DNA of 35,884 bases, taken from a virus. How positions within the stretch are numbered: position 1 is the stretch's first letter; every line of letters begins with the position of its first letter. The stretch lies in the IMG/VR virus record IMGVR_UViG_3300021431_000053. One strand, given 5' to 3'. The notes beneath the pieces are model-generated. The model was not told the DNA's origin. It saw nothing but the letters and a program-made list of their open reading frames with translations, and ran no database searches. The position numbers and the translations under genes were made by a program. Of this stretch, positions 1 through 4,080 are shown piece by piece.

Positions 1-1131
1 CTATATCCTCATGCTGTTGATCTCCCTGTACAGGACGTTCTTCGACTCGTTTGTGTAGACATCGAAAGTTATGTCATTCATCTTGTGTCCGAGAACCTTC
101 TTGCGCACGTAGATGTTTACGCTGTTAAGCTGGCACAGCGATGCGAACGTCTTTCTCGTGTCATGCATAGTGTGGCTGGTGCCAAGCGCATCATTAACGG
201 ATGCAAGCATCTTGCTGAGGCGGCTGTAGCTGCAGTCGATAAGCCTGTCTCCTTCCTTAAGCAGCTCCTCGACGACATAGCCCTTGATGTCATCGTGTAT
301 CGGTATCACCCTGTTCCTACCAGCCTCCGTCTTGGAGCCGGCTACGAGGTAGCTGATTGTCATTTCATTTCCGTCATCGCTGCATGCCTCGTCAATATGG
401 ACTGCATCCCTGCTGATCCCAATAAGCTCGGATGCCCTGCAACCCGTATAGATGTAGATGAGGATGAGATGAGCCTCGGGAGTGTCCAGCTCCTTCAGCC
501 TTCGTATCTCGTCTATCGAGAAGGGATAATGCTTGTCCGACTGGCTGAATCCAGCCACCCTGATGTATGATGTATAGTCAGAGTCTCTTGAGATGTACTG
601 GTGGATAACTGCATACTCGAATATCTTCGAGCAAAGAGCCTTCATGTGGACCTGCGTGCCATTTGCTGAGCCGTCCCTGTCAAAGATATCCTGGAGGTCA
701 GCAAGCGTGATCGTGTCAATCCTCCTGTTATGGATTGAACTGAAGCGCTTGATCCATGCTCTATACCCCCTCCTTGCGGATTCTGAGAGGCCGGAAAGGT
801 CCTCCTCGCTTATGATCTCGAATATCTCCAGGAACGTTGGCACCTTCCTCCTTGTTGCGTCCATGATGCGGTCATAGAGGTCTGGCGCCACTGCGTCAGC
901 CTCATCCCTGGATATCTTCCTTGACTTCGTGAGCGAATAGATCGAGAGGGCATTGAGCGCCTCCTCCCTCGTCTCGAATGTCCCTATGCTTACCTGCTTC
1001 TTCTTTCCTGTTATTATATCTCTTTCATCACTCATTATACGAGCACAGTAGGGCTTTCTTCTCTTTCCCGATAATTTAACCACGGTACCTGTATTGTTCG
1101 GCCTGCGTCTGAATCTTGCGTTCCTAGGCAT
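1..1131 (-). CDS. int: Tyrosine recombinase (phage integrase) with an N-terminal arm-binding-type domain
   Basis: 376-aa ORF. The stop codon TAG is the reverse complement of bases 1..3. Catalytic signature is present: TGCRASEL (Arg), HDTRKTF (H-x-x-R) and LGHKMNDITFDVYT (His/Tyr). It sits at the end of the lysogeny module next to the attP-like repeats. Confidence 0.9.
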   Translation of the reverse strand: MPRNARFRRRPNNTGTVVKLSGKRRKPYCARIMSDERDIITGKKKQVSIGTFETREEALNALSIYSLTKSRKISRDEADAVAPDLYDRIMDATRRKVPTFLEIFEIISEEDLSGLSESARRGYRAWIKRFSSIHNRRIDTITLADLQDIFDRDGSANGTQVHMKALCSKIFEYAVIHQYISRDSDYTSYIRVAGFSQSDKHYPFSIDEIRRLKELDTPEAHLILIYIYTGCRASELIGISRDAVHIDEACSDDGNEMTISYLVAGSKTEAGRNRVIPIHDDIKGYVVEELLKEGDRLIDCSYSRLSKMLASVNDALGTSHTMHDTRKTFASLCQLNSVNIYVRKKVLGHKMNDITFDVYTNESKNVLYREINSMRI

Positions 1132-1194: not shown

Positions 1195-1299
1195 ACGCGG
1201 AAGGTCTTTTTTAACGAGATGGTCTTCTTGCAGTGATGTTCCAGCATCACGCTATCAGCATCCTGGCGCTGTCCGGGATGCCTTTTTTCATGTGGAAGA
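1195..1299 (+). ncRNA. Candidate ~100-nt sRNA, antisense to the leader of any minus-strand transcript entering int
   Basis: It lies downstream of the 1160..1189 promoter. Hairpin GTGATG-6 nt-CATCAC at 1243..1260. Terminator hairpin GCATCC(T)GG-CGCTGT-CC(G)GGATGC at 1268..1291, followed by CTTTTTTC. No credible ORF. Confidence 0.35.
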
Positions 1300-1300
1300 T

Positions 1301-1326
1301 TGTAGTGCATTGCACTACGTTGTACT
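1301..1326. repeat. 26-nt element TGTAGTGCATTGCACTACGTTGTACT (copy 1), containing the perfect palindrome GTAGTGCA-T-TGCACTAC
   Basis: 22 of 26 positions match the copy at 2611..2636. Together the two copies bracket the 280-aa ORF and its leader. Confidence 0.7.
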
Positions 1327-1374
1327 ATTGACGGTTACTTTACTATGTGAAGCTAATGATAAAATCATGTAATG

Positions 1375-2217
1375 CTACTTTAGAAGCTTTCTTGTATTTG
1401 AATCAATAGAAAGATATGTAATTAAATATCTATTTTCTTCGATTGCTGAAGAATTTGCAAAACATTTACTCTTGATTATCTTGTCATGCTTCTCCTTGCT
1501 TACGGTCACTGTGTCAATTACATTTACATTCATCAGTTGATTTTTGTATGTTTTGCTGTGGCATCTACTTTCTATTATTTTTCCCGATTCGTCTTTTTCA
1601 ATGATTCTCCTTATTGGCATAATATCCTGATTATTTGTGCGTGGGTTGTGATTTCGGAATGCAATGATATTGGATATGCAAAAATAATTAGAATCATTCT
1701 TCTTGCTTATACATATGTTTAAAACGTATTGCTGAACATGATATGATGCAATGAAGTCAGGGATAAGCTTGGTTTTACCTCTGAATTTGTTAACATCAAA
1801 ATAGTGCCATTCTCCTTCGGTCAATGCTTTCATAATGAAAGGAAATGAAAGAACTCTGATTCTTGTTGTCTCGTTGCTCCAGGCTCGGCCATTTTTTGAT
1901 AACTTAAGGATATCTAATGTGATAATGCTCTTTTTCATGTTCTTATAAGCGTTGATACCATTGAATGCCCCTTCAAACTTTAGCTGCTTGTTATGGGATT
2001 TTTTATCGTAGAATTCGTGGATGTCCAGTATATGGCTTACTGCCTTTGCCTCACAGTAAACTTTAAATGTCATGCCATCATCCATCTCAACAAATATTTC
2101 ATGGTTCTCTATTCGACTTTCAAAGAAATTACAGTAATCCTTTAATGTTATGTACTGATCATCTGGGATGATGCCTTTATTTATGCAATTTTCAATATAA
2201 TCTGTATGATCTTCCAT
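1375..2217 (-). CDS. Hypothetical 280-aa accessory protein with no recognised family; candidate effector/toxin
   Basis: Long ORF in a visibly AT-rich block. I place the start at ATG 2217, four nt after GGAGG (2222..2226), rather than the TTG at 2232 used by the ORF track. I recognise no catalytic motif with confidence. Confidence 0.75.
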   Translation of the reverse strand: MEDHTDYIENCINKGIIPDDQYITLKDYCNFFESRIENHEIFVEMDDGMTFKVYCEAKAVSHILDIHEFYDKKSHNKQLKFEGAFNGINAYKNMKKSIITLDILKLSKNGRAWSNETTRIRVLSFPFIMKALTEGEWHYFDVNKFRGKTKLIPDFIASYHVQQYVLNICISKKNDSNYFCISNIIAFRNHNPRTNNQDIMPIRRIIEKDESGKIIESRCHSKTYKNQLMNVNVIDTVTVSKEKHDKIIKSKCFANSSAIEENRYLITYLSIDSNTRKLLK

Positions 2218-2228
2218 CTTTCCTCCAA

Positions 2229-2266
2229 ACAAAAAAACACCAGCTTACTAGGCTAGTGTTTTTTTA
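2229..2266 (-). terminator. Intrinsic terminator (A-tract/stem/T-tract, bidirectional shape) directly abutting the RBS of the 280-aa ORF
   Basis: Minus strand reads AAAAAAACACUAGC-CUAGUAA-GCUGGUGUUUUUUU, followed by GUUUGGAGGAAAGAUG. The stem is 9 bp with one mismatch. Confidence 0.65.
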
Positions 2267-2455
2267 ATAAGTGCTAGCGAGTGCATCAGATGACTGACCA
2301 CTCCACCCATAGGATACTTGATGCGTCCCCTCCAGGGTCATGGCTGAGCAGGCCAGGGGATACGGTGCTAGCTCCGTATTCGCTTTCTTGCGAACTCGAC
2401 AGTCGACGAGAACGAAACGGCATTCGGCTCAAGGACAAGCCTTTATGTTTTCGTC
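2267..2455 (-). ncRNA. GC-rich structured ~190-nt leader or ncRNA lying between a promoter and a terminator
   Basis: This is a compositional island, roughly balanced in GC, inside about 570 bp of AT-rich non-coding DNA. Local helices on the minus strand: UUCGC-AAGAAA-GCGAA, UACGG-8 nt-CCGUA, UCCCCU...AGGGGA enclosing UGGC-7 nt-GCCA, and GCAUCA...UGAUGC. I do not recognise any Rfam family. Confidence 0.4.
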
Positions 2456-2460
2456 ATCTC

Positions 2461-2491
2461 ATTTATAACACTAGTGATATTCAGTTGTAAA
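2461..2491 (-). promoter_or_regulatory. Sigma-70-type promoter TTTACA-17 nt-(TGt)TATAAAT driving the structured leader
   Basis: Minus strand reads TTTACA (plus 2486..2491), a 17-nt spacer ending in TG, then TTATAAAT (plus 2461..2468). Confidence 0.5.
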
Positions 2492-2571
2492 GCATTATTA
2501 TATTTTTTTGGATCCTAGAATTCATTTATGGCCATTAGGCACAGCATAAAACGCCTTCATGGGTAAAATAT

Positions 2572-2595
2572 TGTGTTCTTAAATGTGTTCTTAAA
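2572..2595. repeat. Perfect tandem 12-mer TGTGTTCTTAAA x2; possible operator upstream of the leader promoter
   Basis: Read directly: 2572..2583 equals 2584..2595. Confidence 0.8.
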
Positions 2596-2610
2596 TATTA
2601 TCTTTAGTTA

Positions 2611-2636
2611 TGTAGAACATTGCACTACGCTGTAAT
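2611..2636. repeat. 26-nt element TGTAGAACATTGCACTACGCTGTAAT (copy 2), followed by the inverted repeat CTGTAATT-6 nt-AATTACAG (2630..2651)
   Basis: 22 of 26 positions match the copy at 1301..1326. The adjacent 8-bp inverted repeat is perfect. Confidence 0.7.
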
Positions 2637-2650
2637 TAATCTAAATTACA

Positions 2651-2737
2651 GGTAAAATGAAAGAGCCCTCACAGGGAGGACTCTTCTTCAGTGGCGCAAT
2701 GGCCGTTGTGTTTAACAGTGGCGTATAGCCGTTGTTC
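2651..2737 (-). ncRNA. Candidate ~85-nt sRNA made of two tandem ~27-nt repeats plus its own terminator
   Basis: The promoter is at 2744..2772. On the plus strand the repeats are GTGGCG-CAATG-GCCGTTGT-GTTTAAC (2691..2717) and GTGGCG-TATA-GCCGTTGT-TCAAC (2718..2743). Terminator is AGAGUCCUC-CCUGU-GAGGGCUCU followed by UUCAUUUU (plus 2651..2684). No ORF. Confidence 0.45.
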
Positions 2738-2743
2738 AACTGT

Positions 2744-2772
2744 ATATTATCCTATAACTGAAGATTTGTCAA
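2744..2772 (-). promoter_or_regulatory. Near-consensus sigma-70 promoter TTGACA-17 nt-TAATAT
   Basis: Minus strand TTGACA corresponds to plus 2767..2772 and TAATAT to plus 2744..2749, with a spacer of exactly 17 nt. It lies about 30 nt downstream of the MazF-like stop codon. Confidence 0.55.
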
Positions 2773-2800
2773 TCCCCTTGATTTACCTGGCTTTTGCCAC

Positions 2801-3334
2801 TTATTTCTTATTTGATTTATCTTTTACAAATAGCTCAATTAACTTAGATTCAATCAAATCAAGTATCAGGTCATCAGCAATCAATTTCTTTAGTGGGTCA
2901 TATTTACTTGTTGGTGGTAGGATTTTGTATTTACTTATCGTTGTAATGTTCTGAACAAGAGCGTAGGACCTCTTATTCTTTTTGATATACATTTCGGCAA
3001 TATCTTTTAATTCGTTCAGGTTTTTCGTTACTTGATTAATATCTTCTTCGTTATATTGCAGTCCGTTGTCATCTAGATCTTGGAATATTCTTGTGAATTC
3101 TTCTAGTTGACTAATGAGTAATGGGAATATTTGTTTGGATACTATGTTTCCGACATCTAAATAATACGCTTTATTCTTAGAACTCAACGGAACGACTGTA
3201 AGAACACCATTTCCTGGTGAATCTTTCTTTGTAAGGACAATCGCGAAATGCTTTCCTCTTAGTTCGCTTCCTGTTGAAGGATTGAAGTTAACAAGGATAA
3301 TTTGTCCTCTTTTGTACTTTTGAAACCTAGTCAT
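2801..3334 (-). CDS. MazF/PemK-fold toxin-like protein (177 aa) with a ~60-aa helical insertion
   Basis: The N-terminus KRGQIILVNFNPSTGSELRGKHFAIVLTKKD...VLTVVPLSSKNK matches the MazF/PemK signature (RGD-I-V-x-V-x-F-x-P-x-x-G-x-E-x-x-G-x-R-P-x-(V/I)-V-(L/V)...VVPLTS). SYALVQNITTISKYKI and the C-terminal helix LIADDLILDLIESKLIELF align with the distal MazF core. I place the start at ATG 3334, seven nt after AGAGG, rather than the TTG at 3370 in the ORF track. Confidence 0.7.
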   Translation of the reverse strand: MTRFQKYKRGQIILVNFNPSTGSELRGKHFAIVLTKKDSPGNGVLTVVPLSSKNKAYYLDVGNIVSKQIFPLLISQLEEFTRIFQDLDDNGLQYNEEDINQVTKNLNELKDIAEMYIKKNKRSYALVQNITTISKYKILPPTSKYDPLKKLIADDLILDLIESKLIELFVKDKSNKK

Positions 3335-3414
3335 GAATTTACCTCTTTTTTTGAAATGATGATTTGTCAAATTTAAAAACGCTTAGCTGTTTGTAAAGCT
3401 GTTTTATAAAATCC

Positions 3415-4059
3415 CTAGAACTCCTTTATGGCCCTCTTGAGGATGCCGATCACGCGAAAGTTTGTGTTGTTCAGGTCAATTACAATGGGATCGTAGCTGG
3501 GATTCATGGGAATGAGCTGGATGAAGGTCTCGCCCTGCCTGAACTTCTTGCATGTCGCTATGCCGTCGTCTATGCAGAACGAACCGATCTGTCCGCTCTC
3601 TATTGAGCTGGACTTCTTGAATATGAGAAGGTCTCCGTCGTTTATGCCTGCATTGATCATGGAGTCACCGCTTGCGATCTGGGCGAAGTAATCGGATTCG
3701 GAGCCGGCAAGCCCGTTGGAAACGACCTCTATCGTATCGACAAGGTTGTCATCAACGAACATGCCGTTTCCACATGAGATGTCACCATATAGCGGAATGG
3801 TGATGAAGGAGACGGGATGCGGTGTGCTTAGGTTAGATGGCTTGTTTTCAACTAGATCGGATTTTTTTATTCCTAAATAGTCAGCTAAAAGTTGTACTTT
3901 ATCCATTCGTGGATATTTTTTTGCATTAACCCAGTCACTGATTGTGCTTGTTGTTATTTTCAAGTCTCTTGATAAATCAGATTGTGTTTTGTTATTAATT
4001 GATAAATAGTGTCTTAAATTTTTCGAGAATATTTCTCTTTCTTTTTGTTTGATATCCAT
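3415..4059 (-). CDS. CI-like repressor: XRE-family HTH plus an S24 (LexA-like) autopeptidase domain
   Basis: The HTH is KTQSDLSRDLKITTSTISDWVNAKKYP. The S24 motif GDSMINAGINDGDLLIF has a downstream Lys (CKKF). I prefer the start at ATG 4059, eight nt after GAGG; the ORF-track start at 4065 is only two nt from the SD. Confidence 0.85.
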   Translation of the reverse strand: MDIKQKEREIFSKNLRHYLSINNKTQSDLSRDLKITTSTISDWVNAKKYPRMDKVQLLADYLGIKKSDLVENKPSNLSTPHPVSFITIPLYGDISCGNGMFVDDNLVDTIEVVSNGLAGSESDYFAQIASGDSMINAGINDGDLLIFKKSSSIESGQIGSFCIDDGIATCKKFRQGETFIQLIPMNPSYDPIVIDLNNTNFRVIGILKRAIKEF

Positions 4060-4080
4060 ATACATTACCTCACTAACTAA

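Follow-up and report, generated by a model that had tools for sequence, protein, structure and literature searches.

A double-pseudoknot RNA linked to PBECR4-like genes in a temperate siphophage and its possible place in a type III-like module

The stretch of DNA analysed here (the window, 35,884 nucleotides (nt) of the IMG/VR virus record IMGVR_UViG_3300021431_000053) is a nearly complete temperate siphophage genome. Between its repressor (cI) and integrase (int) genes, the classical 'moron' position, we observed a gene for a folded non-coding RNA directly upstream of a 280-amino-acid (aa) open reading frame (ORF). By sequence profiles, the ORF product is a divergent PBECR4 protein, a predicted endoribonuclease (endoRNase) of the BECR fold. 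The RNA is real, conserved and structured, and it is invariably linked to PBECR4 genes. With its ~110-nt core and two pseudoknots, it is a structured RNA class new to Rfam 15. We favour, at slightly better than even confidence, a reading of the locus as a type III-like toxin–antitoxin or abortive-infection module, in which the folded RNA sequesters the RNase until the RNA supply fails.

Architecture and fold of the RNA gene

The elements of the module follow one another on the minus strand:

2462..2491, minus strand: promoter, with −35 TTTACA at 2491..2486, TG at 2470-2469 and −10 TATAAA at 2467..2462
2231..2455, minus strand: whole RNA gene of ~225 nt, composed of a 5' domain, a double-pseudoknot core, a linker and a terminator hairpin
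2231..2266, minus strand: intrinsic terminator, with an A-tract, a stem of ACACUAG (2259..2253) and CUGGUGU (2243..2237), and a U-run to 2231
2226..2222 and 2217..2215, minus strand: ribosome-binding site (RBS) GGAGG and start codon ATG
1375..2217, minus strand: 280-aa protein, with a PBECR4-like predicted endoRNase domain at residues 14-205 (nt 2178..1603)

A sequence-only reading of the same DNA had proposed a promoter, structured leader, terminator, RBS and ATG here, and all of them are present where it had placed them on the minus strand. It had also described the leader as a GC island in AT-rich DNA; the GC-rich leader runs from ~2455 to 2267, and the G+C content was 51-53% at 2251-2475 against 29-37% in the flanks. 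As it had noted, internal tandem repeats were absent; neither tandem nor direct repeats were found within 2229..2455. It had matched the leader to no riboswitch consensus, and in agreement with this the Rfam 15 scan of the leader returned no family at gathering score, while an E-value scan gave only sub-threshold matches far below the gathering scores. The abiF motif (RF03085) was not matched in the Rfam scans of the leader, and ARAGORN detected neither tRNA nor tmRNA. The minimum free energy of the leader was −80.6 kcal/mol (z = −3.1), and none of 200 shuffled sequences was as stable. The leader goes beyond the clean local helices of the sequence-only reading; its fold is long-range and double-pseudoknotted.

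The spacer between the −35 and −10 boxes is 18 nt and includes the TG at 2470-2469. A simple sigma-70 scanner did not call this promoter because position 6 of the −10 box is A. Both the −35 and the TG-extended −10 recur in homologous loci, equally distant from the RNA, and transcription would start near 2455. The folded parts of the RNA are as follows:

2379..2455, minus strand: 5' domain, with the long-range helix P0, GACGAAA (2455..2449) with UUUCGUU (2417..2411), and P0b, UUCGC (2394..2390) with GCGAA (2383..2379)
2361..2378, minus strand: hairpin P1a, UACGG (2378..2374) with CCGUA (2365..2361); its loop holds the 5' strand of P1, GCUAGC (2372..2367)
2326..2360, minus strand: pseudoknot 2, UCCCC (2360..2356) with GGGGA (2330..2326, where the P3 loop begins)
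within 2326..2360, minus strand: P2, UGG (2355..2353) with CCA (2343..2341), 9-nt loop
2305..2338, minus strand: P3, ACCCUGGA (2338..2331) with UCCU (2314..2311) and GGGU (2308..2305)
2279..2303, minus strand: hairpin P4, GAGUG-GUCAG (2303..2294) with CUGAU-G-CACUC (2289..2279)
2273..2278, minus strand: 3' strand of P1, GCUAGC, pairing with the P1a loop (2372..2367) as pseudoknot 1 and closing the core

Covariation among homologues, which the sequence-only reading had put forward as a check, was assessed in a hand alignment of 13 long-group RNAs holding 48 pairs in seven helices. In this set 97.6% of the cells pair, compared with 78.0% in shuffled alignments (0/500 reached the observed value), and 31 of the 48 pairs change on both sides, compared with 17 in the shuffles. 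In the alignment each helix forms a block free of gaps, held in place by conserved flanks, and pairing collapses in the slid controls, to 32-47% of cells. All seven helices, two of them pseudoknot helices, were supported by covariation. As the stem substitutions are compensatory, a decayed coding sequence in the homologues, the outcome that the sequence-only reading had named as contrary to it, was dropped as an explanation; the 'conserved ORFs' in this region are antisense artefacts. RNAalifold, run on a plain and unbiased MAFFT alignment, had already returned six compensatory pairs and placed P1, P2, P3 and P4 as well as the terminator.

P1a (helix 1) has six pairs, five of which change on both sides, and all of its cells are paired; in the short group, the four RNAs upstream of ~200-aa PBECR4 genes, 23/23 are paired. 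The two strands of P1 (helix 2) lie ~90 nt apart, and 4/6 pairs change on both sides with 100% pairing. P1 was found as GCUAGC, GCUGAC:GUCAGC, ACUGGC:GCCAGU, GCUGGA:UCCAGC and GCUAAC:GUUAGC, and it covaries independently of P1a. Pseudoknot 2 and P2 are helices 3 and 4. Pseudoknot 2 becomes CUCC:GGAG in two loci (L020 and L022), its fifth pair being found as U-A, G-C and C-G, and the U-A pair of P2 changes to A-U and G-C. In P3 (helix 5) 6/8 pairs change on both sides, and two adjacent independent compensatory changes are already present among the close relatives. The P3 loop, GGGGAC...AAGUA, is A-rich in its 3' half. P4 (helix 6) showed changes on both sides in 9/12 pairs.

Helix content varied between loci. 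P2 is missing from the short-group RNAs, which gave 136/136 canonical pairs in P1a, P1, pseudoknot 2, P3, P4 and the terminator. L043 carries a minimal RNA of P1a, P1, pseudoknot 2, P3 and the terminator, lacking both P2 and P4; P4 is also missing in L027. In L042 every helix is fully paired. The helices of the 5' domain were compared by eye in the upstream regions and stand outside these pair counts: P0 appears in other loci as GAAYAGAA:UUCUGUUC, GAACA:UGUUC and GACAC:GUGUC, and at the P0b position most long-group loci form a hairpin, though its sequence is unrelated.

The terminator was also recovered by the repeat search as a 17-nt inverted repeat (I1). Its pairing probability was 1.00 in the full-length fold and 1.00 across 15 homologous leaders. 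No competing partner was found for it: with the 3' arm withheld, the partners of the 5' arm were inconsistent among the 15 homologues in nearest-neighbour folding without pseudoknots. An A/U linker of 10-24 nt separates the core from the terminator, and the two do not overlap. The terminator stem covaries (helix 7) and, as GYGCUAG/CUAGCRC, is unusually conserved in the long group though the proteins are only 20-50% identical. Such conservation exceeds the needs of termination alone, and the hairpin might double as a site of protein binding or processing. Only 13 nt lie between the U-run and the ATG, too short a stretch to hold a second promoter. The read-through logic of the sequence-only reading, with the terminator between RNA and ORF, was borne out and is conserved. 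The N-termini of the relatives P0001-P0003 agree with the ATG at 2217.

We considered whether the leader is a ligand-sensing riboswitch or attenuator, whose core would be an aptamer for a metabolite or nucleotide signal. Ligand binding would then alter terminator efficiency, and the RNase would be made only in a defined condition. The core is indeed complex, pseudoknotted and highly conserved in the close clade, as a structured aptamer should be, the terminator stands directly upstream of the RBS, and association with one gene family fits a dedicated regulator. However, with a terminator probability of 1.00, neither arm has a conserved alternative pairing in the 15 homologues (pseudoknots unmodelled), and the linker parts the core from the terminator. 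Almost no unpaired nucleotide is conserved across subfamilies, and P2 or P4 is missing in some loci, which is ill-suited to a fixed ligand pocket. In addition, no known riboswitch class was matched in the Rfam scans, and one RNA-only locus (L018, below) has no downstream gene to regulate. Taken together, a riboswitch is unlikely.

Conservation of the RNA and its linkage to PBECR4 genes

Among the close relatives (three lineages), the ~110-nt RNA core showed 83-84% DNA identity, compared with 61% for the adjacent coding sequence (CDS). Between subfamilies the RNA identity falls to 42-53%, yet the helices are kept; almost no unpaired RNA nucleotide is conserved across subfamilies, and the helix content differs by protein subfamily.

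The order promoter, RNA, terminator, RBS and PBECR4 gene was observed in 17/17 independent lineages with upstream sequence, including L042 and L043, which were looked up only once the RNA model was fixed. This is the gene order of type III systems, with a toxin-like gene reached by read-through of an intrinsic terminator. The contigs of distant relatives each have a non-coding gap of 250-650 nt that holds a promoter, a recognisably homologous RNA, a terminator and an RBS. The surroundings of the module vary; it was found between cI and int, after holin/lysin genes and in non-phage neighbourhoods. An all-versus-all comparison of the neighbouring ORFs showed only phage core genes (int, lysin/holin, cI) recurring, and no conserved protein partner.

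One locus, L018 (metagenome contig OCTW010755699.1, 985..1149, minus strand), carries an L004-type RNA with its terminator, and downstream there are converging genes of the opposite strand in place of a PBECR4 gene. P4 of this RNA is partly degraded, with two mismatches. L018 may be an orphan antitoxin decaying after loss of the toxin. It was the one real match of the metagenome pattern scan, besides three chance matches in coding DNA. The pattern scan of the genome collection gave apparent chance matches only, in unrelated taxa and none fitting the RNA profile. In IMG/VR, the scan for the core returned two known loci and four GC-rich chance matches, and the core was found there only beside PBECR4 genes.

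These scans bear on the possibility that the RNA is independent, a self-cleaving ribozyme or a trans-acting small RNA (sRNA) on host or phage genes that merely shares the cassette. Its fold is as complex as that of small ribozymes, it has its own promoter and terminator, and at L018 it occurs without the gene. Nevertheless, the RNA lies immediately upstream of the gene in all 17 PBECR4 lineages, at a fixed distance and in unrelated neighbourhoods. Ribozyme and sRNA families were unmatched, and the IMG/VR scan found no core away from PBECR4 genes. We regard an independent RNA as very improbable.

Three further candidates were rejected. A retron was ruled out by the lack of a reverse transcriptase, and an IS110 bridge RNA or TnpB omega RNA by the absence of such protein domains in Pfam searches. 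An attP site or host-gene fragment was ruled out because the RNA accompanies the PBECR4 gene into non-phage contexts.

Neither the locus nor the protein was matched by blastn/tblastn against 50,697 phage records, and a search of these records with P0032 gave weak matches only to two Streptococcus satellite phages. In the Streptococcus satellite phage Javan201 (L041, MK448357.1, ~1210..1470), a distant PBECR4-like gene lies at the satellite end. It is preceded by a promoter, ~230 nt of non-coding DNA and a terminator-like hairpin, and its annotated start codon appears to lie inside the terminator. The same RNA fold was not recognisable there.

The predicted RNase and the proposed function of the module

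A word-based search with the 280-aa protein found only three clusters of relatives, with 99, 52 and 49% identity, while an exhaustive profile search yielded 41 representative relatives. Pfam PF18813 (PBECR4) was matched by 15 of the 31 aligned relatives (best E 1.8e-19). The full-length relative P0013 (E 2e-20 to the profile of the window protein) scored 50.5 bits against a PF18813 cutoff of 27. In hhalign, the window subfamily aligned with bona fide PBECR4 members at 99.6% probability (E 2e-23) over residues 14-205. The product that the sequence-only reading had called an orphan without assignable motif was thus identified by remote-homology search as a PBECR4 homologue.

Colicin-D-like BECR RNases have a catalytic-type His in the N-terminal helix region and a C-terminal Ser/Thr. 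In the 31 sequences H62 is invariant, H67 and R121 are nearly invariant, and S182 and N183 are conserved in the close subfamily. The AlphaFold (AF2) model built with the 31 sequences reached a predicted local distance difference test score (pLDDT) of 94.9 and a predicted template modelling score (pTM) of 0.91; a run with only 4 sequences (pLDDT 53) was unusable. Residues 206-280 form a C-terminal extension of ~75 aa. A strict link between helix P2 and this extension had been considered and was broken by L043.

The favoured reading of the pair as a type III-like module rests on several observations. The ORF product is a predicted endoRNase from a toxin superfamily, and the RNA, the sole conserved neighbour of these predicted toxin genes, travels with them into different contexts. 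The helices are kept as the RNA sequence drifts, no conserved structure competes with the terminator, L018 holds the RNA alone, and RCd22/AbiF, an experimentally characterised system, shares the layout. Of the two architectures that the sequence-only reading had offered, the type III-like one gains support, while the riboswitch-like one is weakened as no conserved antiterminator was found.

As we picture it, the self-contained two-gene module would be carried as a moron of the temperate siphophage. A constitutive sigma-A-type promoter would drive the ~225-nt RNA, whose core would fold as a compact double pseudoknot (P1; UCCCC:GGGGA) completed by P2, P3 and P4, and which would end at the strong intrinsic terminator. 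In cis, the terminator would ensure that far less RNase than RNA is made. In trans, the folded RNA would bind and neutralise the RNase in the manner of a type III-like RNA antitoxin. If the RNA supply fell or the RNA was destroyed, for example when a superinfecting phage shuts off transcription or the element is lost, the RNase set free would cleave cellular or phage RNA and growth would be aborted.

Several points weigh against this reading. Its RNase activity, toxicity, RNA–protein binding and trigger are what we infer, and for the whole PBECR family, predicted endoRNases of conflict systems, activity is only predicted (PMC5512222). The window protein alone had no Pfam match at E ≤ 1, so that its PBECR4 assignment is transitive, though the link is strong. 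Pfam, PADLOC and PHROGs gave nothing usable for it, with no match to ToxN/AbiQ, CptN, TenpN or Abi_2. Foldseek against the PDB found no solved BECR structure resembling the model (best E 0.05), and therefore the fold assignment rests on sequence profiles. Against viral models the only significant Foldseek matches were two unnamed phage proteins, and a segment of a polyvalent protein was found at E 0.018. On the RNA side, the tandem repeats of classical type III antitoxins are missing from 2229..2455. The higher conservation of the close-clade RNA (83-84%) than of the CDS (61% nt) is a pattern that ligand-binding aptamers typically show as well. The alignment behind the covariation counts was drawn up by hand around the proposed helices, and the antiterminator test left pseudoknots out of the folding.

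The closest precedent is RCd22/AbiF(Cd) of the C. difficile prophage phi027, with a SigA promoter, an RNA of ~100-130 nt, a terminator, no second promoter and the toxin gene (10.1101/2025.04.15.648962 = PMC12373285). In cis, RCd22 lowers the expression of the toxin 17-fold, and in trans it binds the toxin directly and so neutralises it (10.1101/2025.04.15.648962). The window module has the same order of elements, with a non-repetitive structured RNA (100-230 nt in the two systems), a Rho-independent terminator, an RBS and the gene for a toxin that acts on RNA, here a predicted one. Both are prophage morons; RCd22 lies after the holin gene, as L021, L022 and L029 lie after holin/lysin genes, and the window copy lies between cI and int. 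In contrast, RCd22 consists of two copies of the simple abiF hairpin motif (RF03085), whereas the window RNA has a single ~110-nt double-pseudoknot core with a 5' domain. The toxin is Abi_2/HEPN-like there and PBECR4/BECR-fold here, where the function of the module is predicted. Neither the abiF motif nor Abi_2 was found at the window locus, and the architecture alone is common to both.

The trans activity of RCd22 also bears on a cis-only alternative, in which the leader is purely autoregulatory: by binding or cutting it, the PBECR4 protein would set its own level, and the free RNA would be no antidote. The same linkage and co-evolution would be expected, and some RNases, such as RNase III and RNase E, are well known to regulate the leaders of their own mRNAs. 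However, a strong constitutive terminator would leave most RNA molecules without the CDS, which is wasteful, and at L018 the RNA is kept without the gene. We consider the cis-only leader decidedly improbable.

The type III-like reading also places the pair beside ToxIN, CptIN and TenpIN, which have the same order of promoter, RNA, terminator and endoRNase toxin gene (here predicted). In ToxIN/CptIN the RNA inhibitor is pseudoknotted, and the systems serve in phage defence and addiction. The antitoxins of these classical systems consist of 34-45-nt repeats in tandem, which the toxin excises, whereas the window RNA is without repeats and has a single long-range fold. The toxins are unrelated, the window protein having no ToxN match in Pfam or PADLOC. 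In the type III system AvcID, the RNA antitoxin AvcI is paired with the deoxycytidylate deaminase toxin AvcD, which acts in phage defence and is activated on loss of the antitoxin RNA (PMC10511110). The likeness lies in an RNA antitoxin paired with a protein toxin; the AvcID toxin is a deaminase rather than an RNase, and the AvcI RNA is unrelated to the window RNA.

These precedents were also weighed against an obligate ribonucleoprotein, in which the RNA, rather than inhibiting the PBECR4 protein, serves it as cofactor, specificity subunit or processed substrate, perhaps as a scaffold or guide directing the RNase or as a precursor cut into a functional small RNA. The invariant genetic linkage, the co-variation of RNA architecture with protein subfamily and the conservation of the long-group terminator stem beyond termination needs are in its favour, and the design yields RNA in excess over protein. 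On the other hand, no variable guide-like segment was found, the variable positions being compensatory stem changes. An RNase of a toxin superfamily without an immunity factor would be hard to carry, L018 is more easily explained as an orphan antitoxin, and the characterised precedents with this layout are antitoxins. An obligate ribonucleoprotein is for these reasons judged unlikely.

A more speculative extension, which we rate as unlikely, is that the double-pseudoknot RNA is an infection sensor recognising a phage-derived molecule or protein, or is catalytic, and so releases or activates the PBECR4 RNase. If true, this would be an RNA-based infection sensor with an RNase effector, a logic undescribed for BECR-fold toxins.

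Iyer, Burroughs, Anand, de Souza and Aravind (2017) described PBECRs as injected or virion-associated effectors and as solo phage proteins, and mention no RNA partner (PMC5512222). The window protein shares with these the superfamily, by profile searches, and the conserved His, and polyvalent proteins are among its structural neighbours. It differs in that solo PBECR4 genes here occupy lysogeny-expressed moron positions behind a dedicated RNA gene. No paper in the literature searched links PBECR4 to RNA.

The kind of system proposed, an RNA antidote upstream of a protein toxin with a terminator between them, is known, and the RNA fold and the toxin superfamily would be new to that kind. The module adds an unusually elaborate structured RNA class, with near-perfect covariation and absent from Rfam 15. 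It ties this RNA to solo PBECR4 RNases, a toxin family without a described immunity or control factor. If the RNA is the antidote, type III-like toxin–antitoxin or abortive-infection modules extend to the BECR superfamily, which would explain the safe carriage of such RNases by prophages. In annotation, the region upstream of PBECR4 genes should be searched for the RNA. The compact RNA–protein pair also suits structural work, as the protein model has a pLDDT of 95 and the RNA secondary structure is well constrained.

Phage setting and neighbouring elements

The module is flanked by two genes of the lysogeny region:

1..1131, minus strand: integrase
3415..4065, minus strand: S24/HTH (helix-turn-helix) repressor

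On the plus strand, a cro-like gene and an antirepressor gene come after the repressor, followed by terminase, portal, capsid, tail and lysis genes. The large terminase shares 78.5% identity with the one from Dorea phage DO134P1, which makes a gut Lachnospiraceae the probable host.

A 189-aa ORF at 2801..3370 (minus strand) matches a PemK/MazF-like toxin domain (Pfam E 1.8e-11), of which it has no more than the N-terminal ~50 residues. It matched phrog_1412 (E 8e-41) and has its own terminator at 2686..2660. The ~877-bp block carrying this ORF (2534..3410) is absent from the related prophages L001-L003, and at its borders ~23 bp from the 3' end of the repressor gene are duplicated (2511..2533 and 3411..3433, both aligning with L001 5686..5708). 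Both features suggest that a second moron entered the genome between cI and the RNA gene.

A 24-nt direct repeat, its copies 88% identical, was observed at 1301..1324, downstream of the PBECR4 ORF, and at 2611..2634, downstream of the PemK-like ORF. It holds the near-perfect palindrome GTAGTGCA-T-TGCACTAC and might serve recombination at module boundaries or bind a protein. The homology of the window to the IMG/VR contig L009 starts at 2628, within the upstream copy. The 12-mer TGTGTTCTTAAA is perfectly tandem-duplicated at 2572..2596, ~80 nt upstream of the RNA promoter. L009 carries an identical RNA–PBECR4 cassette, and its segment 2270..3598 lacks the PemK-like gene and the S24 repressor and instead holds a small HTH gene, a 222-aa ORF and a 442-aa coiled-coil ORF. 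Varying accessory genes therefore fill the slot beside the same cassette.

Between the PBECR4 stop codon and the integrase start, a strong GC-rich hairpin with a T-run lies on the plus strand at 1258..1288 (GCATCCTGGCGCTGTCCGGGATGC, then the T-rich tail CTTTTTT), oriented against both genes. Its role may be to shield the integrase from read-through or to end an unannotated plus-strand transcript. The L001/L002 prophage is otherwise 97% identical, and its integrase is interrupted by an insertion sequence (IS) element with an rve-family transposase (L001 7884..9256), so this copy is probably locked in.

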